The notes beneath the pieces are model-generated. The model was not told where the DNA came from. It worked only from the letters and a program-made list of their open reading frames with translations, and ran no database searches. A program made the position numbers and the translations under genes. A stretch of DNA of 64,000 bases from Trichoplax sp. H2 (Eukaryota), in assembly GCA_003344405.1 (NCBI GenBank), contig NOWV01000154.1:62001-126000 (forward strand), given 5' to 3'. Below, one piece after another: positions 37,355 to 60,526 of this stretch; position 1 is the stretch's first letter; every line of letters begins with the position of its first letter.

Positions 37355-38870
37355 CGTACTGTACGCAATACTGTACTGTACGAGTGTACGTACTGTACAC
37401 TGTGTACAGTACTGTACAGTACAGTACTGAGATCCTGTCCTACTGTACAGTATACTGTACTGTACAGTACAGTACTGTGACCGTGCACTATGCACCGTAC
37501 TGTACTGGACAGTACAGTACTGAGATCCTGCCCTATACTGTACTGTACAGTACTGTACTGTGACCGTGCACTACTGTATGCACTGTACAGTACTGTACTG
37601 GACACTTGGACAGTACAGTACAATACAGTACTTACAGTACTGTATCTACTATAGTGTTTATGATCAATGATCATAAGTTCATAACAATGCAGCAGTGTCA
37701 GTCCTTTTTCAGTCCATGATTTTGAAAGCATAAGAAAATCTACTTTATTTCAGAGTTCTTGTGATTGCTCTACTACGGCACTGTATTCGTAGGAACTGTA
37801 CAATGCTGTACAGCAGGATTTCTTAAAGACAGAATCTTAGTATTTTATTATAAAGATCTTTTTTATGTCTCTCAATGAGTTTCTTCTATGGTTTAAAATA
37901 ATGAGTTCAACACAGAGCTGGTCATTACTATTTCTTTTTCTTTACATGTTCCTGATAGCATTTCTTGACTCGATAGTGAATCAAGAATATTCAGAGAGCC
38001 TTGAGCCCTTGACTTTGAGTACTGTACTCTACAGTGCACAGTGTACAGTACCATGACTGTACTGCGTAAACCAGAGAAATTTCGCTTCGGTTCACTACTT
38101 TTGCTGACAGTCACTACTGTACACGTAACAGTAAATTGCTATCTACTGTATTGTACAGTTTCACAATGTCGCAACAGTAAAGTACAGTACTATGTACTAC
38201 AGTGTACAGTACAGTATTGTAAAAGCCCATACAGTATACTGTACTGTACTATACAGTACAGTGTACAGTACGCTACAGTGTACAGTACTGTACATGGTCT
38301 GGTCCGGTCCGGACCGTCTACAGAATACTGTACTGTACTGTACAGTAGAATTCAAAGATGGATCTACAGTACTTTATACTGTACACTACAGCAAGCGCGT
38401 TATACTGTACAGTACTATGCGTAGTACTGTATGGGATAGTAATAATATTAAGGTAATATTAATTACAATATTATACTGTACAGTACTGTACCATCTTAGT
38501 ACTGATAGTACTGATCGCAACATACTGTACAGTACAGTACAGTACTGTACAGTACAGTGTTCATGGTCTGGTCCGGTCTGGACCGTCTGCAGAATAGAAT
38601 TCAAAGATGGACCTACAGTACGTTATACTGTACTATACAGTACAGCGTACAGTAGTTGTACTGTACTGTACTGTACTGTACTGTACTGTATGTCAAGGTT
38701 AAACAATTTGGGTAGCGAATCTGGATCACAAAGTAGATAGTGTACGCTTGCAGACTTATGGCATTATTGAAATGACCAGCAATACAGTCGGCATCCTGGA
38801 TTTGACTCAACGCTGACATTAAGTACTGCACTGTACACTGTACACTGTACAGTACAGCAGATACTACAGT
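37355..38870. repeat. TACAG/CTGTA pentamer low-complexity region with internal direct repeats, upstream of ARID1
   Basis: Dense TACAG/CTGTA units in both orientations (37355-37645, 38018-38870) and a pure (CTGTA)6 at 38661-38690. Direct repeats at 37417-37490/37510-37573 and 38293-38372/38562-38621. Confidence 0.9.
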
Positions 38871-39255
38871 AGTAAAGTTACCGCCAATCTGAACAATTTA
38901 CCATTCCAATAAATGTTGAAATCTTGCAAAGTCAAATGGATCACCGCACGCAGTGGAAGCAGGCGACTTGAGCGATATAAGTTTAATTCGTAAAATTTGC
39001 CATTCCTAAACAATATTATTAAAGATATTCGCTATAATATCGAGCATAATCCTACTTTCAGCTCTTGGTACGGCATTATTTCTACATAGAGCTGTTTCCA
39101 TGATATCAAAGTGAGTCATGTTGCAATTGACATCGTACATTACGCTGGCGCTAGATGTGTGAAATATTTATTCATTTATTATTGACTATTTATTTTTCAT
39201 TATTTATGCCAGAAGTAATGCATTTATATTCAGTACTTATGAATGAATGAATTAA

Positions 39256-40351
39256 TCATTCGTAATCGTCCTCAAGGGTGTTATAAATTGTGCTGAGAAT
39301 GAGAACTTTTGAGCGGGTAGGCTGAGCTTGACTTTTCGGTTTGCGAATGAACTTGGTTAAACAAGTCGCTGGAAGAATAAATAATCTTTTAAATACAGCT
39401 CTACCAGTTATGGTATACAAGAATGGATTAACAGCAGAATTAATAGGAAGTGCAAAAATACCAACAAATTGTAATGTAATAACATCAACACCTCTACTGG
39501 TTATGAAACCAAAATTATTCACAGCATAATACGGTACCCAGCTAATCAAGTCAGTTATCAGTATGACACATAGACGCATTGCAAGTATTTTACTTTCCTT
39601 GGGAATTATTTTTCCAGCGGCTTTTCTAGTTTTGTACACAGAAATAAATATCCCAACGTAAAGGGTGCAAGTGATAATCCAACCAATAATAGTGAGAAAT
39701 ATATAGATTATCATCCAAATGCGGTACAAATAGTTTTCATAATTGCTTGGCATACACATGCTGTTGTACGTATATAATCGATTATGACCTGGTTTATCGA
39801 TACTGAATGATGCCGGCACAAGTGCAAATGTAAAGCAAGCTAGCCATATTATACCGGTAATCACTCGAGTAGCAAGCATGCTCAACTTTTCTGCCTTAAA
39901 CACCAAAGCTATAACGATAAACCTATCGACACTGATTATTAACATTAAAAAGACAGAGACTAAGCTTGATGTAGTCACAAGGATGCAAGATAATACACAT
40001 AAAGGATTCCTTAACCACTCCTCTGACCGTTGACCATACTGATTATTGTTGTAATTTGAATTAGCAAATGCTATAATAAATAGGTAAATTGACATAACAA
40101 GATCAGACATGGCTAGATTATTGATTAGTAGAATATGAACTTTCCCTTGAGTATTATTGAGATAACAGTTCTGAATAATAACAATGATATTGCCAAAAAA
40201 CGCCAAGCAACCAACAACCCAGACGAAGTACTGTAATGAAATATGAGCAAGAAGGTGCTGACATGATGATAAAGTATCAGATATCATCGATGGTTCACAG
40301 GTCACAATTTTAGCAGGTATTATACAACAAAAATAAGGGCGATTCGTTAAC
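39256..40351 (-). CDS. Terminal exon: hinge plus rhodopsin-class 7TM domain of the LGR
   Basis: Acceptor TGTCAATAG|G. Hinge YFCC..TCEP..DTLSSCQHLL, TM motifs GNIIV, NLAMSDLVMSIYL, ISVDRF, ITDLISWVP, LPINSAVNPFLY, typical of LGR/relaxin-receptor-type GPCRs. Confidence 0.93.
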
Positions 40352-43300
40352 CTATTGACATGTTACACAGCCGAAAAGAAGATAGCGCACTTTAAGCTCA
40401 ATGGTTGATGTAAACGTACTATATGAAAGTAGGAAAATTGCAAGACATGGCCTCGCAGACTTACGTTTCCACCAACTGAGGTGGACCATAAAAGGATTTT
40501 CGGGATACATAGGCTAATAGATTCCCTCGTAAATCGCTAAAGATGGGAGAAATACGCAATTTTTAATTTTCGCTTTCATGTAAAGTGACCACACATAAAG
40601 TTTGTAATATAGCAATACAATAGCATAGTCTTCGAAATAGCTCAAAATTTATCTGATAAGGACGGCTTTAAATATCGGGTGGATAAATTGAACTGGTACA
40701 AACAATGGATTTGTAGTAAATTACTATATTTGTAGCCTACATGAAAAGATTTGAAAGATTTAATGTGTAATGATAAACAACGGTATTTGGCTATGCGATA
40801 AAGTGATCTTCAAAACAATAAATCAAGAACTACAGTTTCTTGCAAATTTCACTTTATTACAGAAGTTAGGTTCGTCTAACTACCAAGGACTATCTGACTA
40901 TCTGATAATCTACTTATTACAGCAAAATTCACGATTTATATACGATTAGTTACAGAATGCTTTTAAGTTTATAACTTCTAAGCGTAACGAACGGATCAAT
41001 ATTGCAATATTAGATAATCAGGTTATAAGAGAGAAGAATGTTTAACAGGTGTGATCATACTGTATTTAAGTAATCTTCACATAAAAAAATGTTGCATTGC
41101 GATATATCTCTTGTCGCATAAACTAAAATTATCTGTACGTACACGATAACAATGATGCGTCAATTCAATTATGATTACCAGGAAGTATACAAATTTGTAT
41201 TTCCTCTCTGACTACATCGTATATCTTAAAAATTCAGATTAGTAACAATAGAGTCATTACTTTTCACCCTTTGTAACTCCTAACACTTACAGTTTTTGCA
41301 ATCTTGATAAACCTTTAAAGCATCTTTCCTGCAGCGTTTCAATTTTGTTTCTGCTTGCATCGCTTTATCATCAATTACGATTTTTATTAGTTATAGTCAA
41401 CAAGCTTAACAACTAATTAACAACAACTGAACTAAATTTGCAAATACGTGTTAACACTAAACATACTCAAGTTTCAGACTTACATCAAATTTATGTTCGG
41501 AAATAGTTCAACTATGTCCAAATTTGGCCTACATAATCCTTCAACCTTGTTATTCGATATATTACTGATTCATTTAGACATAAGTATTAGTACATTGATT
41601 ATATTATGCTTAAATTAATAAACTTTATTTGCATTAAACTATTTTGCAGCGATAATCTTGTTAAGAAACAAGTCCAATACATTACGGTATTATTCTATGA
41701 GAATAAAGATCATAACAGAATATTTCGAAAATCATACTTACAGTTTTTCCATATTTTTAAATCGAATTGTTAGTGTAGATTTTATCTTTTTTAGGCTATT
41801 TTTTGCAATATTTCTAAAAGAAATATCGAAATTTTATTAAATACAATATCTGTTTTCTCTAATAAACAGTCTCTTTTTGCTGTTAGATGATACGACACAA
41901 TACTTACAATTCTACTAATTCATTCAAATCATTCAAAGAGACGTCAACCATATCAAATTCATGTATGTTGTTATCATTTAATGATCTATTATTTAGAAAA
42001 GACATCAATTTAAGTAATTATATAAATATATCAGTTTGCTTGCACCAACGATTCTATCTTTAGAGCACTACATTAAATTTAATCTAAAATAAATTATACT
42101 ATGATATGATCACGGTAAATTTTATTGTAACATCAAGTTATTAAAATAACACACTTACAAAATTTTAAGTTTGTAAAACACGGTAAAGGCCTTTCCAGGA
42201 ATAGTGGATATATTGCATTTACTTAAATTACTATAAAAATTTTTTTAATTTAGAAAAAAAAGCTGATTATAAACCTTGCAAATCAGACATTATATTCAGT
42301 TTAGTTAAATTTCGATAATTCTTTAAAAAATTTATGCCAGAAAGTTCTGTGCTTAAAGCTGAATTTCTGTTCACTTTCTTGTCCTTAAACTACCAAGATT
42401 AAGTTATGATTGCTTAAAATTTAAATATAGTTAGGCGTATACAATGCCTAAATTACACCTTTCGATAATTTATTTCTATTATTAAATTGCGAATATCCCA
42501 CTACGTGATAAGATTTGTCTAGAATTTAATGTCAACTACGAATTCAGTATGGATTTACCATACTACATATCATTTTATAGTCAACTATATAACGGATGGT
42601 AAACTAGATATATTGCAACAAACATAGGCAATATCAGTTATAGATCCTCTTAAATGTACCCGTCCTCTGCCGTCCGACTCAGCTCAACAAGATACTCTAA
42701 GTAGAGGATCGTTAACCGAAGTCATAATTGCTTTTATTGGCTTTAAAACTCTCTTAAATTAGTTCAATACTTTTACGTGAAATAAGTAAATATAAAATCA
42801 GCATCTGTAATTTTACGCTGTCCAACTGTTATCAGTATCCAATACAGTATTATGCATATTGCATAAGGAAACACCGTATTTACATGCTACGGTCAAGACA
42901 GCTCATTATTACTTCGCTTACTTACATTCCGATAAGAAACGGCCCAACACGTTCGTATAAATCATCGATGAAGGTGTCCAATACTATTGGATTATCGCTT
43001 ACATCTCTATTTGCTCAAAAAAGTTCCGAAATCGATCTCAAATTCTTCTTAAGTAATATATTTTATAAAGTTAATAGCTCTATGCATAATACTTATAAGC
43101 TCGTCTACTGTAAATAACAATATTTAAGATTCTAGACTGAATTATCGGGTTAATGTTTTATCACCTGACATATTCATCACAGTGCATAGATGTAACTTAG
43201 ACATTCATAATGTAAGGGAAGTATTTAATAGTTCATAATGAAAAGTTTTCCCAGTAAAAGATTTATAAAGAGGATCTATTGGCATACGTACAACTTCAAG

Positions 43301-46300
43301 TTAATTATAGCTGCCATTCCCTTCGTTATTCCGACCCAGTTATTACCTGCCAATTTCCTAAAAGCAATCGACAAGTTCACTACATATAAGATAATTCTTT
43401 ATAAGTTTAGCTATTACAGCTAAGATAATGTTTTTGAATAACTCTCTTCTAAATAAGTAGCAGTCTTATTTTAAGATCTAATTGTCACCTAAATAAGCAG
43501 TATACTTACAAGTCGTTAACTAAGTTTAATTTATCGAGAAAGCCTTTCTGTATTTCTATCCCATTTGCAGTCAAATTAGTATAACTCATGTCACTAACAA
43601 ATACAAAAATAGCTATGTCAGTACTAGATTCAGTTAAACAAATCATTTTCAAATTATGTTCACGATAAACTTCAAGCATCTACCTACATTTTCTTGATTT
43701 GATAGAATAAACGATCACAATTAGGATCGAATTTTTTTATATTGTTGTTTGCTAAAATTCTTAAAAGGTATGATACAGGCTTTTTTAATATGTAATATTC
43801 TATTAATGTCAAACACAGTATTCAGAGTAAATATTTTAAAAATAGCCGTCAGAGTATTTAGTATTGATAAATAAGAATAGTTAAATGAGGATATCACTTA
43901 CAAAGATCTCAATACGGGAGGTAATCCCGAGCAATTTAGGTATTTTATATCGTTTCGTGCTAAATTTCTATAATTACATTGAATGTAAGAATCAATTAAG
44001 AAAAATTTATAGATTATATCTAATAAAGATTAATTATATTTTAACATCATTTAATCTGCCATTACGATATAGGCAATTTTACTCAAAATCTTATAAAATA
44101 TCCAAGTAAGTGATTTTGGTTTTATAATATTATACGAACGTAAGTTTAATACAAACAGAGTAGCCATTAAATCACTGCTTAAAAGGTTACGTAAATCTAT
44201 TACAACCAACAAGAGAATGCACTAATAATACATTAACTCTTTCATAGGTTTCGTTCGTATATTAATGAAATTGATGCCTCTAGCAGGAAAAGGAATTGCA
44301 GCTGCTGTTTATAGCAGTAACGCTTATTTCTGATAATTACAAAGATATCAATATCATTATACGTGCATCTACGAATACTTTACCCATAACTTATCGCCTT
44401 TTGAAAAATCTACGATATCAAGATTTTATTTGATATATATATATAGATTTTGTTTGGTTACAATTGTTAAAATGAATTAAAAATATGGACATAATTTTTG
44501 CTACTTTCACTCACAGCTTTTCTAGGAATGTTAACCCCAAATCATCTTGCTCAGATAGTGTTATAGCGTTATCACTTAAATCGCTAAGTAAATTCAGTAT
44601 ATTCAGCTAAGACAATCTTTTCAATAATTACTTTTATTAATATAAAGTAATAATGTAATATGTCATCCTTACAGAATTCTTAAGTTTTTATATGAAGAAA
44701 AGGTTTTGTTTTCTACTTGCGCAATTCCGTTATGACTTAAATACCTAAAATTAAGCTATTTAGTTTTGCAGGACCTTATACTAAAACTGAACAAGTATTA
44801 TTTCCGAAAGCCTAAAATTGTTTAAGACGTATATTCATATTACTTACAATTCGCCAAGATAGGAAAGTTTGACATTAAAAGTCTTGCTAACATTTCTAAT
44901 ATTATTAGAATTCAAGTTTCTTGTATTTCAAGTTAATGCAACAGAGTTGATAAATATAAAAAAATAATCTTCTATTAGATCAAACATTCGAAAATAATGA
45001 AGTTGCCTATATAAAATTCTTATAGGGTAAGAAATAATGACAACTTGGCTATTAATAAAGGAAAGAACAGTTTTACAGTATCCGTAAGTCTTGTAATCCT
45101 TCCAAAATAGAATTAATATCAGAGATATGGTTATTTTGCAAGTATCTAAAATAAGTATAATTCATGTCTTAATGCTATTTCGTAAAATAACCATATTACA
45201 ACTTGCTACGATTATCAGTCTTACAAAGAATTTAACTTTGTATTCATGAAATAATTTTCACTAAGAACTCCAATCCTGTTTGAGTCCAGGTGTCTTTTAA
45301 GGAAAATATTGTAATAATTATGAAAGCGCATAAGTAAATATTCTATGCATGCCTTTCATTTTATATCATGTACTAAACAAGAATAGATCAATAAATGTTA
45401 AAAAGTGCATACAAATGGAGTTAAATGAAGTAAATGAAATAGTTTGCTCATCTGCAAAAAACAAACAAATACAGTAATTCATAACCATAGATTCGTTTAA
45501 TAATTACTACTATTTATGATTACAATCATCAGGTGTTTTTCACTATCAATTATTTACTTACAATTCTTTGAGCTGGGTTAAGTTTATGAAATCTTGTGTG
45601 CTTATTGTCGTGATAAGATTGAACGTAAGAGATCTGGACATTAGAGAAGACACAATTTAGCATTTCAGAAGCATAAAGGCTAGTAAAATACTTTCTTTGT
45701 AAATTAATCTTGTTTCTATGCAGTAATAGCTGCCCGATAAGTGGATTTAATGCAAAGACCTAACGAAGCAGTTATAATCGTGATACAGAGATTTTAATCT
45801 AGATGATGGATATAATTCGAGTTTAGATCTTACTTACTCAGTTAGTGTACTGTTATTCTTAACAATAGCACTATCTACTTATATTTAAATGCAGAAGATT
45901 TAAGAGTTGCTATCAAAAAGCTCAATGAAACATGATAGTCAACGTCTATATAGCATAGATTAAATTTTATGATTTGACAATTCATGCTTTACTAAATAAT
46001 GATCGTAATGTTTGTAAGAATAACAGAATTCAGCACCTATAAAGAAAATAATATCTTATGGTGTCACGGTACGAACTACCGTGAAGAGTTAAATGACTAA
46101 ACTTCGTGAATTAATATTTATATATGGAGATAACTATTAATGGCTTACAGTAAGAACCACGGCAGTTATTATTTTGTTACAGTAACTTATGCTGTACTGA
46201 AGTAAGAGTTCTTATATAGCAACTGATGTGAATTGATTATAGTGCTATGTCTTGTAACGCATGTGATTAATATCCTGAAAATATTCACTTATAGGTGATA

Positions 46301-49300
46301 CCATAAATAATTCCGTGAAAGGACATACGGTAGTCTATATATTTAGAGTCATTCAGTACATGTGTACGATTATGAATATCTCTGTATCAATTTAACTATT
46401 CAATATAAACTAAATTTCATAATCTTATGATGGCTCATTCATGATAGCTGTTGCCGAAGGGTATTTAAGCTCGGCAGATAGCTGCATAAAATAGGAATTC
46501 TCTAGTTGTTTAATCTATAAGGAAAGATATGTAAGTGCTTGAGAAATAGCTAAGGGATACTGAATCCCGGAGACTTTAGTAATTTAGAGATTTGTTTTGC
46601 GTTATCCCTGTCACGAAGCTAGTTTGTGAAATATGGTAATAATTTCTAGTTCTTCACTATTGCCATACATTCAAGATGAAGAAAAGAGTTAAATTCATTG
46701 GGATACACATGCCGTACGTGAATACACATATGTGTGTAGTTTACAACCACAGCTTTCAGCTCATAAACATACAAAACAACAAGTTGTGACAGCGGTCTTA
46801 TAAAATCTAGCTTCTGTAACTGGTTCTTTAGCAAGAATCTGCAAAATATGAGCAATAAAATAGATAATTGGAACGCAGTAAGCGTACAAAAGCTACCGCA
46901 TTTATATTATATAGTAAACAGAGAAATAATTAGCTCGATTAGGATATTTATAGAGTATCTAAACTACATAGTACGCTATTTGTATTTCCGTTATTCCTAG
47001 GAAGATTAATATTTTTTGTACTTACAGTGACTGTAACTTTGAAAATGGTCTCAGGGCATCAATATGGATGTAATTTAGAGTATTTGAAGAGATATTCCTG
47101 TAGAAATTGAACAGATTCTAGTTAAAACAATTTACCTAAAATTATGTGTGCATCGTATCAATATTACAATTAAGTAAGGACAAGAAATCTGATATTTAAC
47201 ATAAAGGAGAATTTGACCCACTGTAAGAAAAAAATTATATTTTATTAAATGCCCTTACATTAATTTTATAGATGATAAACCCCCAGTAAGATTTGTATCT
47301 ACCTTTAACTCAAAATCTTAGCCAAATTAAAAGTATCGTAAAACAATTTGGCGAATTTTATAGTGATAACTTATATTTAGTCGATCTAGTGCCTGATTTT
47401 GAGTATCGTAATCCAATCGTATCAATTATGATAGGGAAATTCTTTTCTAATCTAGATTCATCATATAAACTACTGTTGCATGACGAATAAATTGGCTTTC
47501 TCTGTTACTATGTAATTGCACACAATAACATTATCACTTTAGCAGAATTGACTACAAAAAGCTACAAATTTATTTTTAACTTTTATCTGTACAGTATATT
47601 GTTAGGTAGCTCTTTACTGATATTTATATTTTAGGAGTTTAGGTCGAGTCAAACGGTTACCTCAGAAGTTACCCAAGAAATTATAAATCAAATAACCATT
47701 CATACTAGATACTGCATCAATGTTGAATACATATATATATATACTAGCTATTCTAAATGCACAATCATTCTTTTTATCTAATAGTAATTGCTTTAATCAG
47801 GTAGTAGATATTTATGCAATGTAGCATGCTTATTTAATTATTTTATCTTTCAATTACAGGCATTAAATTAGAATAGTTTTTCTTACATTACCATAAAACT
47901 GGTATGGAATATGTCTATGAAACTAGATTTATGCAACTTAGAAGATTATTAAATAGATACTCATGATTGACTAGAATCATAAGCACCTTATGAGACTCAT
48001 AACATATGCCATGCAAATATTATTAAATCGAAGGCGTGAATTTAATTCGTTAAGATAACTTGTGTTCTGTTCAAAGCAACACTAGATGATAACCATATTG
48101 CATCGCGAAGTAGCACAAATTATAGTTCTAAATTGACCTCGGAAAACATGTATCAGCGTGTACTATGCACACAAATATTAGCAATGATCTGTCAGTAAGG
48201 AAGTAAATAATTGCGTAGCTATAATTTTGCGATATGGATGAAATACTTACATTGAAAGCATAGAATTGTAATTATTCATAAAGAATGAATCCTTAATATT
48301 TCTAATGCTATTATAACGATTGCCTGTTAAATCGCTAACATAATAAATAGATATTAATCAGTGAAAAGTAGTAAGAAATTTATTTGAAATTAAGTTTAAC
48401 TATAAGTAGCTATTATTTTGTTTCTCATGCTATCATCAGAATCATGCTTACAGATGGACTAAGTGATCCAGAGTAGAAAAGTTGAGTAGAGTTGATTCAT
48501 GCAGTTTGTTATAAGATAAATTGCTATTTCAAGCGAGATACCAAGCAAGATTATACAATATAAAAATAATTTTAACATAAGAATATTAATATTGATCAAA
48601 AATTACTATACTTGTTGCAATTTGATATTTTAAATCGATTACGACTGTCATTCTCAACTATAGTTATGAAGATATAACTAACAGCGTCCTGCAGTCTCCA
48701 AAGTCCAACCGTTTTATTTCCGATAGGAAATTATTGGCCAAATCTCTACGTTAGAATACCAAAAAGCAAAAGATTTTTCCATGAGCATATAGTAACATAT
48801 GGTAAACGATTGAAATCAGTTATAAACTCTATTAATGGTCAATTTGATCATTTAATAGATTTTTAATCTTTTCATCCTTTCTAAATTAGTGCCTGGTACA
48901 AGAATATATGTAATCAATATTGTTTACAACAATTGAAATTATAGTCTTTGCTGTATTACACTGTACCATGGCTAGGCCATAGTTATAATAGTTTGGATTA
49001 ATCAAAATTAGCGGTTGGCCTCAATTAATACTTAATTGTTATTTACTAATCCAGATATAGAGATTACTTATCTTAATAAACACTAGTACATTCTATTTTT
49101 GAAATTTGTTATATACTAATAATATCACTTTGTGTAGATAATTTCGATACTCATGACAAGATTACTTAAAGATTTAAATAATTTATATTTGCTCAATGAC
49201 GCGAATTCGTGGTAGAAAAAATTTTAAATAGGATACTAGCTTAAAATATTTCGCACTCACTAAATAATATTAAAAATTGTTTAAATTTTTACTTTATACC

Positions 49301-52300
49301 ACTGATCGCTAAGCTTTACAATTATGATTGTGTTACTAATACTATATTTTTTTATTCTATATATATATATTTTACGAGCTATATTGATATCCATATCATC
49401 CGTGGAACTTAGTTAAGACTTACATGTTCTTTATTACTACCGTATTCCTTCTTCGGTTAATCAATTTATGTCTTCCATCTAACTTCAGTGGATAAGATCT
49501 CGATACCCCTCTTGGCGGATACAAATAATCATTAGCGATAACTGTGGCGATAAATAACTTTAAATATAATGTAAAAATGTCGGTATGCTTTTAATTAGAC
49601 ATAGAATACGACAGCATCGTATATCACTGTATCATCTGATTAAATTATAAGTGAAAATTAATGCATACAAAAAATCCATAGATGGTACAGCAGGTAATTT
49701 AAATTCCTGAAAATTACTGATCGGATTACCGCTAAGCTGCCTAAAATTAAGCAAAGTAAGTTTATTTGCTTTAAATTTCGTTAACACAAGCTATCATTGA
49801 AAGTAAAAAGTTTAAAGAAATATTAAAATTGATGAACTATTAAATGCAGCCTAGTTACATAGTGAAAGATGCACAGGCAATACTTACAATAATTGTAATT
49901 TATTTAGACCAGAAAATGCATTAGCATCAATCGAAAATATTTCATTCGTTTGTAGGCGTCTACAAAAAGAATTTAACACTATTAGAGACCAGTATTTGAT
50001 TATATTAACATGCTACAGATCCTGTAATTCTTTATAATAATTGGAAGAAAAATTACGCTAAGCTGTAACGTTGATTCTATTACAATTATACTTATTTTAA
50101 TCTTATCAAGGAATATCAAGACTAAGTTATATTATTATACAATTTTATACTCATTATTCTTCGCTTAAAACTAACAAACACTGCTATGCACTGCCTACGA
50201 AATGCAGCTTGAGCTCTATATAATAGACAGTCCTACTATTTTTTAACAGAAACCTTCTTTTTAAATTTTGAATGTATTATTCTTTCAATCGGTATAAAAT
50301 CACTGACAGTGATATTCGCAAGCTATTAAATTTATAGCATTTAAATTAGCATTTTAACAACTAATGATTGTAAATCAGCTCAGGACAACTACTATGTGTA
50401 TTAAGATTTAGCTATCGTTATCTTACGTATATTACTTCATAATACAGATTTAAATCTACATTAGTAACCCTAACATAACCTATGAAATTAATGGCAATCA
50501 ACTCGCAGTCTCAAATTGTGCTTTGAAAATCACAGCATTATCTAGGTGAAGTTTGAGCCAGCTAATGCTTACAGTACTTTAAGATTTGAGAGATGTTGGA
50601 ACTGATAGGCGCTTAATGACCGAATTTCATTTTCATTTAAATTTCTAGCAATTTTAGTCATTTAAAACAAACAATTAATTATCAGAGAGATAAGCTTTAT
50701 CTACAAAATTCTAGCTTCTTAATGAATTTTACAATTCTTGAAGTTTGACCAACGGTAGGAAGACTATTGGATCTAGAATCGTCATATCGTTGTCTGCCAA
50801 ATCTCTACATGATATAATATTAGAAATAGCCCTATAATGCTGTATGTTGCTACTATTAGAATTCGACTTTATTAATAATTTTTAGTTGCATTTTTATACT
50901 ATCCATAACTGGGTACCTACAAGGTAGTAACGTTATATAGGTCTTTGAATGCGGTAGCTTTTATTATAGAGACGTTATTGAAGTTTAATTGCCTAATGAT
51001 GGAAAATTTGATGTAATATTCCAATTTTAAATATTCCCTTATGACATACTCGAAATCTTACTACGCTAATAATTTCTAGCGAATATCTATCATTTGAGTT
51101 CTTATTGTTAGCTTTTACTATGAAGATCTAAATATTTACAAATAACAGAATTACAGATTGAATAGGTTATAAAGACCCAAAAATTGATGGTTGTCCAATA
51201 CTTGCAATTGGGTATTAGTGATATTCCTGTTCAATATTAGAATGAAGGAAGTTACTAACTTACGAGAGTAATTGTAATTGGTAAATTATGTTCTTATTAT
51301 TCATAGCTTAATATCAGAATATTCAGAGTAAGACTATTAATTCTCTTCCTGACTGAAGTTTTAAGAAAAATTCATCCAGACAAGCGTAAAATTAATGTAA
51401 TGCCGAATTAAAGTTGCTAATGATTTGATACTTAAACTATAAACTGAGATAAATAAGATATTTAACAATGCGACTCACAAAGAGGTTGCCATGACCATCG
51501 ATTTAAATAGCTTAGGAGGAAGATTAAATATGTGGTTATTATTCATAACTCTAGAAAAAAGGAGGCATACTGATTAAACCAGCTGCTTTAAATGCAGAAA
51601 TAAGCTAACACGATAGTTTTCAAGGCCTTCCTTTACACCACAAATAAACTCTCGCCTTAAATATCTAAATCATTAATAAGATCTACTACTGTACTTCACA
51701 TTGAAATACTCGTAAATTCTTAATTAATAACTCTACGTTAATAATACTACTTATTTGATCATTATTATTATACGCACAGTGTTTTAATCTTAGACAATTG
51801 ATGGAAGGCTGTTGGTGCAATGAATCGGATAAAGTTACTATTTAAATACCTATATAATTTTAGATGGAAATTAATTAAGTTAATTATGTTATTTACGAGT
51901 AGTTATGATCATTAGATTCTTACAGTTTCTGTAAGTTGGGAGCGCACAGCGTTTTTGAATATATATGTGTCAAATTATTCCGATCTATTCGCCTAGTTGT
52001 TAAAATCAATGCTTTAATAAACACTTGAATTTTACTCTAACAGGCGATATCGGTTAGTTGCACAAATCATTTGTGTCAAGATTTTATGATTTTCGGAAAA
52101 AATAACTTCGCTGCCTTTCAATATAGAACTGTAGTGGCATAATCACTTATCATATCGAAATTAATTTACTTGTTCTTTTTTAATTTTTATCTGACCGTTA
52201 CCATACAATATATATAAGTAACGATAACATTATACTACTAAAGGGTTTAATATCAAATCCTATACAATATCTAATTATTTAGACAGCGAAGAAAAATACT

Positions 52301-55300
52301 TTATGACTCCTTGGATAAGTTTTATTGCAAGTATTTGGCCTGATCTAGATAAGTTATAATAATTGCTATTTAAGATATTTATGGACTAAGGTTATCTAAT
52401 AATTACATCATGCTGACGTTTTTAATATTACTAAATCATGTAATATCACAAACATTAAGTTTTCAGTATTTAAAAGTAATCAGATAGCAGCATAATTTGC
52501 CTGTTTTAATAGATATAAATTAAAATTGAAATACGAAGCCAATGGTAAGACTAAGAGCGACAAAGACTTACAGTATCTTCAATCGATCAAGGCCGCAAAG
52601 TGTATTATTTTCTATCGTTTGTATCCTATTTATAGAAGCACTTCTACATAAAAGCAAACAATATCAAGTTACTTTGATGATAACGGTTTATTTAACTACA
52701 AAAACCTGATATGTACAGTTTTGTAAATATAAGTAACTATAACGGTCAGGTAAAATTAGATGAGCGTATAATATTTAGTGTTAATATATAAATGTTCTAT
52801 AACTTTTAACATGGATGCATAAGAATTTACCATGTCGAATACCCTAGCCTAGATGATAGACTTAAATATAACTAGTGAAGTTCATGTATCATGATGTCTG
52901 TTGTGTTATTATTGGAAGAACATAAACACAAGCTGCGTAATAAAAACATCTAAGTCAAAAATTACTCCCTGGGTAAGTAATGTATTAAAATAATAATATA
53001 GATTTACAGTTCTATTTACATTGAGTACACCGAGTCTGCTTACGCACATAAATGGTGTTACAAATACGTTAGGATAGTAATCTGTAGACGCAAAAACAAA
53101 ATTCATACAAGATTTTTTTGTATTACGCAAATGTCGTATTGCATGCTTATGCATTCATAACCTAATAATCTTGAAAACTAGACACAGGTCATAATTCATT
53201 ATTATTATAGACGAATAAATCATATATTATAGTTAGTAATGGATTATTTCTCGATCTGATGCGATGATAAACATAGCGTAGCTAGAAAGTAAATAATAGG
53301 TTTTAATTTTTGTCTAGTAAAATATACGTACAATTCCATCAGATTTGTTAAGCAATCAATGTGACCAGGTTTTAAGCTCTCCAAATTATTACCTGTGACG
53401 GACCTATAATGTATATAGTTAAGACAGTCATGAAAATTTTCTTTTAAGTATTCTAAATTTTAGCTTTAATACACCAATTCTTTAAAGCTAACACACTATA
53501 CACAATTTTATAATTATACCCTTGCAAATATTAGAAAAGAATGATTGTGCTAATAAAACAAATGTAACATTAGCGAGATTAACTAACTTAAATAGTTGTT
53601 GACCTTAATATAGGAGATCCTATATTAGTAGAGACATCTTATCTATCGTGATGATTATAATAGTGTTATCGACTAAAAGTATGTGAACAATGTAATTAGT
53701 TGCAATCTATGCTGCATTTGGAATGATAATGATTATATAAGGCACGATGGTATTAGGAGAAGCTCCTACTGTATTAATTTGGAAGCAAAAGCAAATCGTA
53801 AGGTGGCAGATGATGTTTTGCTAGTTGCATATAAAGCGAGGTCTTTCTGTAAACAGTTATTACTTATCCTCCGTTAAGGTTAGACTCCCAATAAGTTGTA
53901 ATTACAGCTGTTACCAATTACTGACGTTTTCATTAGATTTGAATTTCATTACAATAAAATATATGAAACTAATTACGTTTCGATTTATGACAAATATATA
54001 TAATCCTTACTGGATTTACGAATTAAATTACGAAACACAATCTTTAGTAAAATAATACTTTTAGATTTAGTCTTGTAAAATATAAATCTCTTTCATTTAA
54101 TTAATTGCGATAAGCTAATGTTAGAATAACAATTATTTAATTAGCGCACAATATATTAAATTTTTACAGACTGTTCAAGTCTGCTATAAGCATCCTTCAT
54201 AGCTTACTTACAATACTTTAAGATTCTTTAATTTACAAAATGAACCACTTTCAATAGTCCTGATTGCATTTCCAGCAAGCTGTCTAAAATCGAATAATTT
54301 GAATATGTTTCATATTTAATTAAATACAAAGACACCTTTTCTAGAACAATATCACGTTGCTGAAGTGTTAAAAGTCGAGAATAATTTCCTGTCCTTAGTT
54401 TTAGATATTGTCAGTGTTACAACATACAATTCTTGGAGATTAGCAAGATTAGCAAAATTGTTCGGCTGTATCCTTGATAACTTATTGTCTGAAAAATCGC
54501 TAATGATTTGAAGTAATTAAAAATATAAATTCGCTTAACATCTGTAAATGAAAAGCATTTTTTAAATATTAGTTAACATTTACTTTACTATCAATTGCCT
54601 GAATTATCACACTATTTACGATAAGATTATAAAGTTTAATTTTATTTTACTACACGCACAGTGATTGTAGTTTGATTGTCGGCTTGAAGGCATTGTCGTC
54701 AATCTCAGTAATTTCATTAGCTTCATAAGATCTGGCATAAATACCAACGGTATTTGCGAATGACTCGAAATTATGCAATGTTTGGTTATAAAGAATTCAA
54801 ATGCTGGTTGTACAGCCAGAGAGCACATTATGACCATATTTATTGATTAAGTAAATTTCAATGATTCATTTATATTTTGTAAAGGTAGAAATCTTCGAAA
54901 TCTTATTTACACGCGTTTATATGACTCTGCAGTAGCCCTGTACATTGTACAATTGTACATGCACAATTTCACGCGCTAGCTAAGTCAATTTATCAAAAAT
55001 ACTACTAGTATTCAGTACCAATGTGTTGAATGATTGAAAAATTAATATAACATGGTATAGATAGGCCATGCTATGAGAACGTAAACTTTGTAATTACTGT
55101 AATATAGCATTAGACATGACTTTAAATTCTCTTACATTCCAATTAGATGAGAAAGGCATGTAAGGCTTCCATTAGAAACTTTAAATAGTTTATTGCCACT
55201 TATAGACCTATAGAAAAATATGAAATTATTGTAATTCCAATGTTCTAATGATAAACTATGTTGTTAAAATGCAACTGACTTAATACGGAATACCGTTTTA

Positions 55301-58300
55301 TTAAGAAAGCTTAGAGATGTAGAAAATATAAATGCAGATTAACTTTGTAGCTATAAATTGTGCAGTATAATTAGGAACTAAGGAATGGTTAAGAAAAGCT
55401 TAAACTTCTGTTACTATTTGAAATGTTCACTTTACTATTTAAATTCGGATTAGCTTACATGAACAACAAATTCGGCATTGAACAGAATGCCTCGCTTTCG
55501 ATCAATTGGATATTATTATTATCCATATTCCTAATAAAGTGGAAACATAAATATGAAATGTAAAATGTATATATAGAAATATTTTACATATATTCTTAAA
55601 CTGATACCCAACCTAGAATTCACAATTACTAATTTGAGCTTGAACTATAGTATCGGTTAATAAACTAGATAACTTGATCCATTGAATTTAAGTATGAAGA
55701 CTAAACAGTTCAACTAGAAATGATTGGAACACTTGATAACACATTCAGCATTTTTAAAGTTAGAAAACGGTAAGACATCGAAAATAAAAATTAATTAAAC
55801 AGCATTATTAAGAGAGTTAAGGGCATAAACAATATCTATAGCTATTACTAACGAAGCAAACATAAAAAATTTCTTTTATTTTGGCATAAATTTTTTATCA
55901 TTATCTTAATGCATAACTTCTTACAGGAATTCTATTCTTGAGACACAGGCAAAAGTATGACGTTCAATCTTATGGATTTTATTCGCATAAAGCAGACTGT
56001 AAATTATATTATAATAAGAAACTGGTGTCATTTAATGCTGTGCTGCATACGAAGACAAGATAATTCTCATGTAAAATAAACCATACAGTTCTACCATACG
56101 ATGTGATCCACAAAATGAATTCGGTTCTATGTAAATAATTGAATTTTGCTCGAGTTTTCTAAATCAATGAAAATTTGATAGCTCATTTCCGTAAATAGTG
56201 ATTGGGTTCCACGTATCTACAGCTATTTCATGAAAAAGCTTACATAGGGGTATTAAATATTGGATATAGTCTGATGTAAGAATGAATATTTTATATAATG
56301 GATTAACGTAATGATTCTTAACTTCTGCAAGTAGTAACATACATAAAAAGTTTACGTAGTGCATAAAATATGAGTAATAGGTTCGCTTTGATACACTGTA
56401 AGCAACTAAAATTGCTTTCTATTAATTTAATATAGTAAATAAGTGCGTTGCTGGCGTTGGTATAATGATACATTGAATTTTGGGATAAATAGATAGCGAT
56501 TTTAAATATAGGCGATATCTAAGTTAGTAACGAAATAATTGGATAAAGTTCTACTATTTTATACGAATACTTGCAGTATATCTTTATACTTAAAATATGC
56601 CTTTAGATTAGCTAGCGGCTTCTAGCTGATCATCTAGTTCTATAACTTACAGGTATTGCATTGACTGCAAACCAGCGAAGGTAGTACGACGGATAATTTT
56701 CAACCGATTTCCAGCCAGATCTCTAATTAAAGGAACAATTAAAGAACAGTATAGAGGTATAATTTATCAAAACCTTATAAATATAAATGCGAAGATAGGT
56801 AATTCAGTAAATCTGAAATTTTAAAAGCTATGCCGGCTGTATAAGTGGCAGAATGAATTATACTGACAATGCTATATAATTGAATACTAAGTTAATATTT
56901 AAAGCTTTGATAATAGAGTACTGTCCACCATGCTCCAAAAATGCTAATTATTTTTGATTTAAAAATCTTACAGCATTCGAATTTTGTTCAGATTAATAAA
57001 AGAACTCGGTTCAATTTCTTCAATGGCATTATACTCAAGATATCTAAAATATATGTAATTAATATATATATTATATATATATGAGTAAATATTTTGATCA
57101 GTTTACTTGCGTGAGCCTGAGATTGTAGAATAAGATATGATCTTATTCCGTAACTAATCATTTTGATAATCGTTATAATACAGAAATTATCTTAGCTATT
57201 TAAGCATGTGTATAGCGCATACTCCAACTGTCTTTGTCTTTTTGTATGATACTCACAAATCTTCCAAATTTGATAGGCAGGCCAAACTATTATTTTTGAC
57301 AACCTTCAGACGATTACCCTTCAAATTACTGTGTAATATAATATTCATTATAGTAGAAATAAATAAGTTCTTATGAGCTTGTTGGTCATAAATATTGATT
57401 GAGGACGCTTAATAATTTTGAATAATTTTATTGACTAAATTTAACATGCAGATTTAGCCAAATCTCGTAAAGCAATTTCAATATTTACGTATTATTAACC
57501 GTATATGTTAGCTTTAATTATTAATCTAATTATGTTTATCGATACGAACAGGCGAATGAGAGATTCCAAGCCACATAAAGAGTTGGCTTCAATTGTAGTG
57601 ATAGCATTGTGTTTAAGTCGCCTGAGATTTACAGAAGAGTAAACCTTGATCAAATTTCTAATCTATTACAAGCTACAATTTTTTAGCTAAGGAATAATAC
57701 ATAATAAATATTGTCGTTATTGATTAATATCTCACTAATGTTTGATTGTTCTTTCGAATAAAGATTCATTTAAATCATAAAATAAAACTTTACAGCGTAC
57801 ATTTTTAGCACTACGCAATTTATAACAAATTAAATTTCATTGGATATATGATTTATCTTTTCTATGGTGAAATATTGATTCTCCTAATACAAATAGAACT
57901 TTGATATGCTATGTTGCAAGTAGACACTATGGTAAGCAATTGTGCTCGAGATATTTTCATCTCATTAATGTCTTATGAAAAATATATCCATAATAAGTAG
58001 AAATAAAATCCTTATTGATCCCTCTTCAATGATGCATAGAAGTAACGAAAAACAATTTAAATTTAAATCTAAGCTTAAGCGTTGGAATATAGCCAGAATC
58101 GAACTATGCACACGCGTACTTATAAATGCGTACTGTAAACTTCAAACTTACAAATATTTCAAATTCAATAGGCAGCCAAAGTCACCTTGAGACATGGCTT
58201 TTAGACGATTGTTATCCAGAATTCTAGTGAAATTGCATTTTCATACAATACGTATAGAGGTAAGAATAGCATTGCCTAATTATATCTGTAATTTAACCAC

Positions 58301-60526
58301 TTATACTTAACACCTAAATGCTATACTTACAGGTACTGCAAATTTTGCAACATACAAAACGCTTTCGATTCAATATGTAGCAGAGCATTCGATCTTAACA
58401 TCCTGTAAAAATTGAATATACGGATTTTAATGACCAGGTTATAAATGAAGTTTAAAGTAGTAGTATCGTACTGAGCGTATAGTAACCTTATTGATAAGTT
58501 TTTAGTTGAAGCTACTGTACATTTAACAATTTTAAATTTAATGCAGAAAGTAATTAGAAAACAAAAACTAAGATTTTGGAGCGCCTTTTACAGAGCTATA
58601 CATTCGTATTAGTTCGATTAATTCTGCTAAGATTTTATTACGACATCAGAGCTTAGTGCTGATTTCATGTGCTTAATAATGATTTAAGCAACCATATCCC
58701 AGCCTTGCAAAGATTTGTAACATGGGTAAACTTTTATCTTTTAAAATCAGCTAATATTACACTTATATTCTGACTTAAATTTATCATTATAAAACATCTT
58801 AAAGTTACATTGAGTATAAATCTAACATTCTAAGAGACTAAGGTATCAAAACGCGAATAACTAAACAGTGCAACCGTCAAACAATCAAGTGTAAACTAAG
58901 AATGGGTTTGGAAGCCTAGGATAGTGCTACTTACAATAATTTTAAATTACTTAGGCAATTAAATGATCCAAATGTAAGAGCTTGTAGCCGATTGGCTTCT
59001 AAAGACCTTATAAAAGATGCTAGCATAAATAAACCTTACCGATATAGCAATCTAGAAAATAGAATGAATTTTAAATCTTACAGATTGGTTAGATGTGGTA
59101 ATCTGCAGAACGCATCAGTCTCGATAACCTCGATAAGACTACTAGTAATGTTCCTACGGCAAATAATCATAGATAAGAATGGCCTTATAAATTTTCATTT
59201 GCTTATCATCCTTTTAAAATTGATATGAACAATTGGACACGGCAAGATGCTCCGTTAGATTCTTGTAAATGTACTTTATACAAATACTATGAAAAGAGTC
59301 GATCCTTTGTATCTGTCCATTTCTACTATGATAAAAAAGCTGCTACTGAATTATTCTCCATGATACATTGTACTCAATGTTAATATCATAACAATATTGC
59401 AGCATATTAACGTTTTTAGATTCTTGATATAGATGAATTTGCTCTGTAATCTAACAGTGAGATCGAACATATAGGCAATTCTTATAATCGTATTAATTAA
59501 TATTCTGAAATGTACCGTAATCTAGAGCCTCAATCTTACCCTTACAACTAAACTAGGATGTATGCTTTCGAAAGTTCCAAATAATACAGTATCATATCGT
59601 TTGAGATACATGTCATGTCGTAAGATAAAATAGGCACAACTTGACAGAGATGAAAAAAGTTATATCCTAAATCAGGAAGATAACATTATACACATTCGAA
59701 TACTTACAACACGATCAACTCTGGGTAGTTAATGAAGCTTCTCGCTTTTATCTTTCTGATACTAGTATTATTGATTATCCTAAGCGATAAAAACTTAAAT
59801 ATCATCACGTAGATCAAGCAAGTAGTAAAATTTTGGCATAATTCGAAAGATATAATGAGGAATAATATCGGTAAGAGAGCTACAGCTATTAGACGTGTGG
59901 TTAGTAAAAGAACGCGTAGAGTACCACTTGCTAATTTTAGTTAGGAAGCTATATTTTATTTCTATTTGGATTCTTTGCAATACATTATTTTAATTATTAA
60001 AAAAATATAGATTGACTAAATAATCAATTTCAGTAATAGTGGACTGTATAAGATCATTCATTCTTCGCGTAAGCAGCACGTGAAGGCAGATCAATAATTA
60101 AAATTATATTAGTATACGTATTGATTACGTTAAAGGATTTATAGCCTAGCCTGTTTTGATTAGTCTTAAATATACCGTAATAAATGAAGTAATTTGAACA
60201 TAAACTATGAATAAAATATTTCTATTAATGATTATACTAACAGTGACTTCACATATCTTATGCCAGTATAGTTAATGTCGGGCAATGCTATTAAGTTACT
60301 ACTCGAGCAACTTATAGATGAATTGCTGCAATTGCAGATGCTTGGACAACCATTACTGATTGCTATTAGAAATTATAATAATAATTCAGCATATGACACG
60401 AAAATAAAGAAAAGCCTTACATCAATATTTCATATTTAAATTTCTACCTGCAATTCCACAACTACAGGCTATTACAAGCCAAACGACAGCTATGAAGTTA
60501 ATGCAGAGAATCCACTGGGATTTCAT
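39256..60526 (-). CDS. Leucine-rich-repeat-containing GPCR (LGR; RXFP/GRL101-like hinge) with very long LRR ectodomain; may comprise more than one gene
   Basis: Signal-peptide exon 60526-60448 (MKSQWILCINFIAVVWLVIACSCGIA), LRR-NT exon from 60362 (GCPSICNCSNSSISCSSSNLIALP), about 48 single-LRR phase 2-2 exons between 59779 and 40465, and terminal exon 40351-39256. Linker exons between LRR blocks (50-42 kb) are not fully resolved. Confidence 0.75.
40465..48745 (-). repeat. About 21 further single-LRR exons (63-84 nt, all multiples of 3) in several sub-blocks
   Basis: Exons: 48683-48745, 48452-48523, 48251-48334, 47026-47097, 46773-46838, 45562-45633, 45225-45293, 45077-45145, 44848-44919, 44673-44744, 44515-44583, 43902-43967, 43510-43593, 43292-43357, 42926-43006, 42159-42230, 41908-41985, 41742-41813, 41484-41564, 41291-41362, 40465-40536. 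Examples: YLSHNGIAQVENKTFSSYKNLRIL, DLRGNLLAYVSRKSFYGPPQLVET. Confidence 0.82.
49669..59779 (-). repeat. Block of 27 tandem single-LRR exons (26 x 72 nt, one 69 nt)
   Basis: Exons: 59708-59779, 59082-59153, 58935-59006, 58331-58402, 58152-58223, 57550-57621, 57257-57328, 56972-57043, 56651-56722, 56087-56158, 55925-55996, 55459-55530, 55136-55207, 54660-54731, 54428-54499, 54212-54283, 53332-53403, 52572-52643, 51924-51992, 51778-51849, 51479-51550, 51155-51226, 50921-50992, 50733-50804, 50573-50644, 49888-49959, 49669-49740. Each is AG/GT-bounded, stop-free and approximates xLxxNxIxxIxxxxFxxLxxLxxL. Confidence 0.9.

Follow-up and report, generated by a model that had tools for sequence, protein, structure and literature searches.

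A 64,000-nucleotide (nt) stretch of the Trichoplax sp. H2 genome (contig NOWV01000154.1, positions 62,001 to 126,000; here called the window, whose own numbering is used throughout) contains, at 39256-60526 on the minus strand, what is probably a single 53-exon gene encoding a 1,639-residue leucine-rich repeat (LRR)-containing class A G protein-coupled receptor (GPCR), or LGR. The encoded parts follow one another in the order signal peptide, LRRNT cap, 50 one-unit micro-exons, four-cysteine hinge, and rhodopsin-type seven-transmembrane (7TM) domain, the last carrying DRF at the DRY position and NPFLY as its NPxxY motif and lying on one large final exon. The gene is real and well delimited in the window. 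It is a new, record-size member of the described placozoan LGR family, not a new type of receptor, and most likely belongs to the placozoan-specific LGR radiation (PMC9545775). LRRs and 7TM are joined on one polypeptide in an annotated Trichoplax sp. H2 protein (RDD37223.1, here P0001, 1020 residues), with which the last 28 LRR-type exons are collinear and which runs into the 7TM; for exons 3 to 24, linkage to the 7TM is proposed solely from the gene model. If the 53-exon model is right, this is the longest LRR array on a GPCR among those found.

The original prediction for this region had described one signal peptide, one LRRNT, about 48 LRR exons and one 7TM exon in 21 kb, all on the minus strand. 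Its landmarks (the signal peptide exon at 60448-60526, the LRRNT, the LRR exons, and the 7TM exon with its acceptor at 40351) were all recovered where it had placed them. The signal peptide, the LRRNT, and the 7TM region were again present once each, and the count of internal exons came to 50, comprising 49 LRR-like exons and 1 degenerate unit.

Gene model and repeat exons

The LRR exons were first found as 72-nt minus-strand stretches bordered by AG and GT that have one frame open, with the unit form xLxxNxIxxIxxxxFxxLxxLxx; units of other lengths were located by a relaxed-length search and by tblastn with P0001. Together, the 53 exons chain into one open frame (coding sequence of 4,920 nt, 1,639 amino acids) that starts with the ATG at 60526 and ends with the TGA at 39256. 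All 52 introns have AG/GT borders and are 74 to 1153 nt long (median, 182 nt). Donors read GTAAG in 32 of 52 cases, and the acceptors are TAG (36), CAG (10), or AAG (6), so that 46 of 52 are YAG. The phase is 1 at the end of exon 1 and is shifted to 2 by exon 2, making the hand-over consistent; exons 3 to 52 all lie between phase-2 introns, each splitting a Leu, Ile, Met, or Thr codon, and the final two exon bases (n = 51) are CT (22), TT (21), AT (7), or AC (1). The 50 internal exons measure 72 nt in 36 cases, 69 nt in four, 66 nt in three, 81 nt and 84 nt in two each, and 63, 78, and 87 nt in one each. The region is AT rich (GC content of 0.27 to 0.31). The 7TM open reading frame (ORF), which extends from stop to stop over 39256-40362 on the minus strand (368 amino acids), is nearly the only minus-strand ORF of at least 60 amino acids there. 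As had been remarked beforehand, the LRR exons are largely invisible to an ORF track: ORFs of this size reveal only the 7TM exon and two incidental frames, which contain exons 6 and 19.

A position matrix built from 34 exons matched the minus strand at 35 places within 40465-59153, each with AG and GT at its borders, and matched nothing on the plus strand or in the rest of the window. Similarly, a hidden Markov model (HMM) built from 36 exons gave 37 matches of at least 11 bits, all on the minus strand at 40467-59775, and a best score of 9.7 bits elsewhere; as both were trained on the exons themselves, only the silence elsewhere is informative. A strict LRR motif, [LIVMF]xx[LIVMF]x[LIVMF]xxNx[LIVMF], occurs 37 times in the spliced ectodomain of 1,249 residues, compared with 2.4 ± 1.5 times (maximum, 9) in 2000 residue shuffles. 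A plain LxxLxLxxNxL scan of the six unspliced frames found no enrichment, because every intron splits the LRR motif. The N-terminal 594 residues, once spliced, match unrelated LRR proteins with E values of about 1e-53. The ectodomain comprises about 1,290 residues (1,249 in the motif count), in line with the more than 1100 anticipated.

The exons are listed below with the evidence for each. Cys16 and Cys17 denote a cysteine at repeat position 16 or 17, matrix and HMM are the two profiles just described, and P0063 is a paralogue.

Exon 1, 60448..60526 (-): start codon at 60526 and signal peptide, 79 nt, ending in phase 1; sequence read
Exon 2, 60242..60362 (-): LRRNT cap (CPSICNC...C), 121 nt, phase 1 to phase 2; Pfam LRRNT at 29.8 bits (cutoff, 25.8), AG/GT
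Exon 3, 59708..59779 (-): LRR 1, 72 nt; HMM 17.2 bits, splice sites
Exon 4, 59082..59153 (-): LRR, 72 nt, Cys16; matrix, HMM, splice sites
Exon 5, 58935..59006 (-): LRR, 72 nt, Cys17; matrix, HMM, splice sites
Exon 6, 58331..58402 (-): LRR, 72 nt, Cys16; matrix, HMM, splice sites
Exon 7, 58152..58223 (-): LRR, 72 nt, Cys17; matrix, HMM, splice sites
Exon 8, 57550..57621 (-): LRR, 72 nt, Cys16; matrix, HMM, splice sites
Exon 9, 57257..57328 (-): LRR, 72 nt, Cys17; matrix, HMM, splice sites
Exon 10, 56972..57043 (-): LRR, 72 nt, without Cys; matrix, HMM, splice sites
Exon 11, 56651..56722 (-): LRR, 72 nt, without Cys; matrix, HMM, splice sites
Exon 12, 56087..56158 (-): LRR, 72 nt, Cys16; matrix, HMM, splice sites
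Exon 13, 55925..55996 (-): LRR, 72 nt, Cys17; matrix, HMM, splice sites
Exon 14, 55459..55530 (-): LRR, 72 nt, Cys16; matrix, HMM, splice sites
Exon 15, 55136..55207 (-): LRR, 72 nt, Cys17; matrix, HMM, splice sites
Exon 16, 54660..54731 (-): LRR, 72 nt, without Cys; matrix, HMM, splice sites
Exon 17, 54428..54499 (-): LRR, 72 nt, without Cys; matrix, HMM, splice sites
Exon 18, 54212..54283 (-): LRR, 72 nt, Cys16; matrix, HMM 31.2 bits (the top score), splice sites
Exon 19, 53332..53403 (-): LRR, 72 nt, Cys17; matrix, HMM, splice sites
Exon 20, 52572..52643 (-): LRR, 72 nt, Cys16; matrix, HMM, splice sites
Exon 21, 51924..51992 (-): LRR, 69 nt; relaxed-length search, HMM 7.2 bits, splice sites
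Exon 22, 51778..51849 (-): LRR, 72 nt; matrix, HMM, splice sites
Exon 23, 51479..51550 (-): LRR, 72 nt; matrix, HMM, splice sites
Exon 24, 51155..51226 (-): LRR, 72 nt, the last before the P0001 match and without a counterpart in it; matrix, HMM, splice sites
Exon 25, 50921..50992 (-): LRR, 72 nt, where the P0001 match begins; tblastn with P0001 residues 8-31, 67% identity
Exon 26, 50733..50804 (-): LRR, 72 nt; matrix, tblastn with P0001, HMM, splice sites
Exon 27, 50573..50644 (-): LRR, 72 nt, absent from P0001, aligns with a P0063 repeat; matrix, HMM 24.4 bits
Exon 28, 49888..49959 (-): LRR, 72 nt; matrix, tblastn with P0001, HMM, splice sites
Exon 29, 49669..49740 (-): LRR, 72 nt; matrix, tblastn with P0001, HMM, splice sites
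Exon 30, 49424..49510 (-): degenerate basic 29-residue unit GVSRSYPLKLDGRHKLINRRRNTVVIKN, 87 nt; 59% identity to P0001 residues 104-130
Exon 31, 48683..48745 (-): LRR, 63 nt, counterpart in P0063 and none in P0001; relaxed-length search, HMM 11.2 bits
Exon 32, 48452..48523 (-): LRR, 72 nt; matrix, tblastn with P0001, HMM, splice sites
Exon 33, 48251..48334 (-): long LRR, 84 nt; tblastn with P0001, splice sites
Exon 34, 47026..47097 (-): LRR, 72 nt, after the longest intron (1153 nt); matrix, tblastn with P0001, HMM, splice sites
Exon 35, 46773..46838 (-): LRR, 66 nt; 89% identity to P0001 residues 249-266, splice sites
Exon 36, 45562..45633 (-): LRR, 72 nt, after a 1139-nt intron; matrix, tblastn with P0001, HMM, splice sites
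Exon 37, 45225..45293 (-): LRR, 69 nt; 78% identity to P0001, splice sites
Exon 38, 45077..45145 (-): LRR, 69 nt; tblastn with P0001, splice sites
Exon 39, 44848..44919 (-): LRR, 72 nt, no counterpart in P0001 or P0063, weak AAG acceptor; matrix, HMM 19.7 bits
Exon 40, 44673..44744 (-): LRR, 72 nt; matrix, tblastn with P0001, HMM, splice sites
Exon 41, 44515..44583 (-): LRR, 69 nt; 78% identity to P0001, splice sites
Exon 42, 43902..43967 (-): LRR, 66 nt; 86% identity to P0001, splice sites
Exon 43, 43688..43759 (-): LRR, 72 nt; matrix, tblastn with P0001, HMM, splice sites
Exon 44, 43510..43593 (-): long LRR, 84 nt; 82% identity to P0001, splice sites
Exon 45, 43292..43357 (-): LRR, 66 nt; tblastn with P0001, splice sites
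Exon 46, 42926..43006 (-): LRR, 81 nt; relaxed-length search, tblastn with P0001, splice sites
Exon 47, 42159..42230 (-): LRR, 72 nt; matrix, tblastn with P0001, HMM, splice sites
Exon 48, 41908..41985 (-): LRR, 78 nt; relaxed-length search, tblastn with P0001, splice sites
Exon 49, 41742..41813 (-): LRR, 72 nt; matrix, tblastn with P0001, HMM, splice sites
Exon 50, 41484..41564 (-): LRR, 81 nt; relaxed-length search, tblastn with P0001, splice sites
Exon 51, 41291..41362 (-): LRR, 72 nt; 79% identity to P0001, matrix, HMM, splice sites
Exon 52, 40465..40536 (-): last LRR, 72 nt; 83% identity to P0001, matrix, HMM, splice sites
Exon 53, 39256..40351 (-): hinge (YFCC..P..C.P..C), 7TM and C-terminal tail, 1096 nt; Pfam 7tm_1, 70% identity to P0001
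Stop codon, 39256-39258 (-): TGA of exon 53
AATAAA-type motif cluster, 39160..39200 (-), approximate: about 60 to 100 nt past the stop, likely polyadenylation signals; read directly

Two further open, in-phase AG/GT exon candidates on the minus strand (42586-42666 and 42289-42366), both within the 695 nt of intron that separate exons 46 and 47, were rejected as not LRR-like by the HMM and absent from P0001. Weak partial LRR-like HMM matches were also seen inside introns at 56836-56859 and 54881-54907 on the same strand (6.5 and 7.1 bits) and may be remnants of decayed repeat exons.

N terminus, hinge, and 7TM domain

The ATG at 60526 is the first after an in-frame stop 11 codons upstream (ORF 60425-60559), and exon 1 (MKSQWILCINFIAVVWLVIACSCGIA) passes a crude signal peptide test, with a hydrophobic segment at residues 6-24. 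All other hydrophobic segments of the spliced model cluster at residues 1308-1548, with none between the signal peptide and the first transmembrane helix. A Pfam scan, one of the checks proposed with the original prediction, matched the LRRNT on exon 2 with the score listed above and 7tm_1 on exon 53 at 87.9 bits (cutoff, 30.5) over the entire profile (positions 1-260 of 260). The LRRNT exon was the sole Pfam match among 126 minus-strand ORFs of at least 30 amino acids in 40352-64000, and LRRCT, TIR, and LDLa domains were not found. A six-frame search of the whole window for DxSDE or six-cysteine LDLa patterns was also negative, so both scans bear out the earlier statement that an LDLa module is missing.

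The joint between exons 52 and 53 is in phase and yields ...VETLTNRPYFCC. The hinge that follows is about 35 residues long, contains four cysteines, and aligns with the hinge of RXFP1. Its pattern, YxCCxxPx5CxPx9Cx3LxHxxL, corresponds to 10 invariant columns in nine Trichoplax LGRs, and all ten are present in the model. The exact pattern was found in 8 of 11 Trichoplax relatives and in none of 17 non-placozoan relatives. The three Trichoplax proteins without it are P0004, in which the x9 spacer is one residue shorter, P0068, and P0069. A looser CC...C...C arrangement is present in 6 of the 17 non-placozoan relatives, four of them named GRL101-like, and vertebrate RXFP1 lacks the CC and the fourth cysteine. 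The hinge had been described as RXFP/GRL101-like, which agrees in part with these observations: the RXFP1 alignment and the arrangement common to the four GRL101-like proteins favor it, and two of the four cysteines are lacking in RXFP1 itself.

Relatives of the receptor

The best match of the 7TM ORF is P0001, annotated as a GRL101-like protein (68% identity), followed by other Trichoplax proteins (41 to 44%) and then by relaxin receptors (31%). An HMMER search returned 2,725 proteins at an E value of 0.001 or less, headed by Trichoplax proteins of 336 to 1270 amino acids; six of 10 further representatives that were looked up carry a relaxin receptor-like or GRL101-like name, and none a type A or B name. 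Matches to sequences in the Protein Data Bank rank RXFP1 (7TMW; E value of 5e-35) ahead of TSHR (7e-28), FSHR (3e-22), and LHCGR (3e-20), and RXFP1 is 31% identical over 323 residues. Outside placozoans, the 7TM therefore appears nearest to type C. Its placement in a Trichoplax-specific clade is suggested by identity ranks (44 to 68% to Trichoplax proteins versus 31% to RXFP1), and Trichoplax-specific LGRs stand outside type C in the tree published in PMC9545775. Metagenome contigs gave 96 pattern matches and no relatives.

P0001 and exons 25 to 53 are 65.8% identical over 1041 columns and collinear exon by exon, and P0001 is a probable orthologue of this part of the gene. It starts at the equivalent of exon 25, without a signal peptide or LRRNT, and lacks counterparts of exons 27, 31, and 39; a divergent stretch (residues 131-159) occupies the place where the window has exon 31. 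Two other database proteins, P0211 (Trichoplax sp. H2 RDD36462.1, 842 amino acids) and P0091 (scallop, 1604 amino acids), contain two 7TM parts each and look like neighboring LGR genes fused by gene prediction, a further sign that public LGR models are unreliable at their ends.

Organization and origin of the LRR array

Exons 4 to 20 (52572-59153, minus strand), and perhaps also exon 21 (51924-51992), exhibit a two-repeat super-period. Amino acid identity between exons 4 to 20 is 0.28 to 0.33 at lags of 2, 4, and 6 and 0.20 to 0.23 at lags of 1, 3, and 5, a periodicity reached by 3 of 20,000 order shuffles. A single cysteine is present in 13 of these 17 exons and alternates strictly, at position 16 in even-numbered exons and position 17 in odd-numbered exons. 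The four exons without cysteine form two adjacent pairs (10/11 and 16/17), a pairing that arises in 28 of 2380 ways by our own arithmetic. The alternation suggests disulfide staples between adjoining repeats, and the paralogue P0063 has a similar but less regular cysteine pattern.

The array may have grown as symmetric (phase 2-2) exons of 72 nt were duplicated in tandem time after time, in part as two-exon units. Pairwise identity among the gene's exons reaches at most 58% for nucleotides and 52% for residues, compared with residue identities of 50 to 89% between exons and P0001. Since the exons resemble one another less than they resemble P0001, we infer that the duplications are old and mostly predate the split from P0001, in which case the N-terminal block of exons 3 to 24 (N-block) would be expected there too.

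The array is interrupted by exon 30 (49424-49510, minus strand), a basic, non-LRR-like 29-residue unit (…KLINRRRNTVVIKN) whose counterpart in the P0063 alignment is an irregular repeat. The unit probably represents a degenerate repeat or loop, and a foreign "island" domain at 49 kb was rejected on the strength of this alignment.

One gene or several

Several considerations favor one gene: the single signal peptide and LRRNT together with a single 7TM, a short intron without methionine between exons 24 and 25, the absence of an internal anchor or cap, and paralogues with long arrays. Collinearity with P0001 spans the long introns at 45.6-48.3 kb, where a break had previously been suspected. The beginning of P0001 looks like a prediction artifact, as its first eight residues correspond to intron sequence in the window, translated across the acceptor of exon 25. 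In the paralogues, P0004 and P0068 (both from H2) match the model from residue 408 to about residue 1600 (31% identity; E values of 1e-153 to 1e-166), and in P0063, cysteine-type repeats like those of the N-block precede the C-terminal block that is shared with the model. These paralogues have at least 32 to 36 repeats joined to a 7TM and are still N-terminally truncated models.

Other observations weigh against the 53-exon model. The joining of all exons in one mRNA is predicted from sequence, and the continuous ORF argues only weakly for the full chain, since the uniform phase of LRR exons gives an open frame across any joint; the matrix and the HMM are likewise tied to the exons on which they were trained. 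P0001, the sole orthologue model, covers only exons 25 to 53. The search for relatives of the N-block with the LRRNT exon as the query gave two candidates, neither of which scored, and a profile of its 22 exons gave 47 matches to generic LRR proteins (chaoptin, artichoke, and Toll-like receptors [TLRs]), none of them placozoan. Local BLAST of the spliced N-block against all fetched proteins found identities of only 24 to 31%, its top generic matches again being long extracellular LRR proteins of these kinds, and the N-block could be absent from, or unannotated in, Trichoplax proteins. Exons 27 (50573-50644) and 39 (44848-44919), both on the minus strand, are good LRR exons without a P0001 counterpart, and exon 39 has a weak acceptor; exon gain or loss, skipped cassettes, or errors in the P0001 model could account for them. 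Finally, function, ligand, and G protein coupling are ascribed to the gene by its membership of the LGR family.

Given the extent of P0001, the region might hold two transcription units or an internal promoter, with exons 1 to 24 encoding a secreted LRR-only protein and a receptor of about 27 repeats plus 7TM starting near 51 kb, an arrangement considered unlikely. The start of P0001 at the exon 25 equivalent and the failure of the LRRNT query and the N-block profile to find an N-block orthologue would fit such an arrangement, and truncated secreted forms would be easy to make, as read-through of the donor meets a stop after one codon in 40 of 50 LRR exons. However, only 162 nt of intron separate exons 24 and 25, the 22 open codons upstream of exon 25 contain no in-frame methionine, and the shorter receptor would have neither a signal peptide nor an N-terminal cap ahead of an ectodomain of about 680 residues. 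A crude scan for internal exons with an ATG and a signal peptide ending in phase 2 found one on the minus strand, at 56364 and far from exon 25, versus six in the plus-strand control, so no such exon lies near 51 kb. The upstream gene would also lack an LRRCT, anchor, or other terminal domain, and the paralogues, themselves N-terminally truncated models, carry 32 to 36 repeats on a 7TM polypeptide.

The missing N-block orthologue would also suit a decaying relic of a dead or rearranged gene, or an assembly artifact, in either case not expressed. This explanation is extremely improbable: none of the 22 N-block exons has a stop, frameshift, or lost splice site, their HMM scores equal or exceed those of the C-block exons, and their ordered two-repeat period with alternating cysteines is preserved. 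The identity of at most 58% between exon pairs at the DNA level makes a collapsed or expanded repeat assembly unlikely, and the only N run of the window is at 21473-21493. Of the sampled words of 49400-59200, fractions of 0.22, 0.16, and 0.15 occur in three RNA-labelled runs, which is not evidence of expression; intronic or DNA reads are probably present in these runs, as spliced mRNA alone would give a lower share.

A third explanation accepts a single gene and treats the symmetric LRR exons as skipped cassettes, so that the usual products would fall far short of 49 repeats and the 1,639-residue form would be made rarely or never. The uniform 2-2 phase, exon lengths in multiples of three, the lack of exons 27 and 39 in P0001, and the weak AAG acceptors (6 of 52) are compatible with skipping. 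Against this, the 50 exons are without exception intact and have retained their LRR core residues, a sign of selection on each of them, and uniform phase is an ordinary outcome of exon duplication in LGR genes; routine skipping on this scale is judged very unlikely. The single 53-exon gene is retained as the probable structure.

Shape and putative function

An AlphaFold model of the paralogue P0063 (from a nine-sequence alignment; mean pLDDT of 73.5) has 29 evenly spaced β-strands, a low-confidence hinge (residues 689-737), and seven transmembrane helices. Its best Foldseek match is full-length LGR4 (E value of about 1e-25), and it superimposes on the ectodomains of TLR13 and TLR8 with TM scores of 0.66 to 0.68 (normalized by the target) at a root mean square deviation of 5 to 6 Å. 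As 26 to 29 repeats already approach a closed ring, about 49 repeats would have to leave the plane and wind beyond one turn. A superhelical solenoid is therefore a reasonable conception of the ectodomain, judged from the paralogue model.

In the proposed mechanism, a secreted protein, peptide, or other macromolecule would bind the concave face of the very long LRR solenoid, and binding would be relayed via the cysteine-stapled hinge to the 7TM, which would activate a heterotrimeric G protein. Activation of RXFP1 and RXFP2 is LDLa dependent, which cannot apply here because the LDLa module is missing; activation would instead have to proceed via the hinge or extracellular loops. Placozoans have no neurons. 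A role in microbial or environmental sensing is speculation by analogy. Placozoans are reported to lack true TLRs and to couple C-type lectin domains to GPCRs (PMC6321704). A broader proposal, put forward as a long shot, would regard giant placozoan LRR-GPCRs as pattern recognition or environment sensors rather than hormone receptors: a disulfide-stapled solenoid of about two turns would read macromolecules derived from microbes or food and signal to G proteins, and with 50 symmetric cassette exons, the number of repeats, and with it the specificity, could be varied by skipping or by rapid gain and loss.

Public placozoan LGR models are commonly cut short N-terminally, so that repeat counts, ligand-binding surfaces, and even member numbers may be in error. 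A complete model that includes the signal peptide and cap, the register of the repeats, the alternating cysteines, and the hinge signature provides a template for reannotation of about 40 paralogues and also helps in the choice of constructs for deorphanization.

Surrounding sequence

TACTG-derived tandem, partly palindromic repeats lie just 3' of the gene (37356-37632, 38229-38294, and 38626-38690) and give long spurious ORFs on both strands. Neighboring genes are a CFAP47-like cilia gene at approximately 5165-19082 on the plus strand (CFAP47, CH, and ASH/HYDIN-type Ig domains) and an ARID1/BAF250 (Osa) homologue at approximately 30167-36633 on the minus strand (ARID, BAF250_C, and Q-rich exons). 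Identical short peptide matches occur on either side of the N run at 21473-21493 (21160-21192 and 21793-21825, 633 nt apart), and 21160-21825 may be a duplicated stretch around an assembly gap.

Comparison with known LRR receptors

The 24-residue LRR type is the one typical of TLR8, TLR13, chaoptin, and artichoke. Those proteins, however, are single pass or glycosylphosphatidylinositol anchored and have a TIR domain or no signaling domain, whereas the array here is carried on a 7TM. A Pfam search of the minus-strand ORFs found no TIR domain, no single-pass anchor was found, and the C terminus comprises seven helices, so the receptor falls outside the TLRs.

With type A and B LGRs (FSHR, LHCGR, and TSHR; LGR4 to LGR6), the gene shares an LRR ectodomain on a class A 7TM. 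In the classical gene layout of glycoprotein hormone receptors, each repeat occupies one exon of about 72 nt and the 7TM lies on one large exon, a plan that the present gene shares. Unlike the present receptor, type A and B LGRs have 9 to 18 repeats, long type A or LRRCT-like type B hinges, and a more distant 7TM. The type C LGRs (RXFP1, RXFP2, and GRL101) have the nearest non-placozoan 7TM, and their short hinge may be comparable, the CC...C...C arrangement being common to GRL101-like proteins and incomplete in RXFP1; they differ in that no LDLa is present here and in having about 10 repeats rather than about 49. Sponge LGRs with 7 and 26 repeats have been described (PMC4079206).

The closest resemblance is to the placozoan-specific LGRs. 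It had been foreseen that the LRR-GPCR family might not be new, and T. adhaerens is reported to have 46 LGRs, of which 41 are Trichoplax specific and combine a hinge of their own type with an "unusually high number" of LRRs (PMC9545775). As in those receptors, as far as the main account describes them, the class A 7TM is preceded by an array of unusually many LRRs and by a cysteine hinge specific to the family, with no LDLa. The gene differs from the placozoan database models examined in having a complete N terminus (signal peptide plus LRRNT). In a loose count, of the kind proposed with the original prediction, the model has 50 repeat units, against a maximum of 37 among 163 relatives. A literature search found no LRR-GPCR with more repeats, the supplementary counts of PMC9545775, which lay outside that search, being ones that may include values above 34. 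Against the published placozoan maximum given in the main account, the 34 LRRs of Tadh-LGR-15 (Hauser, Koch & Grimmelikhuijzen 2022, PMC9545775), the receptor predicted here would have about 49.

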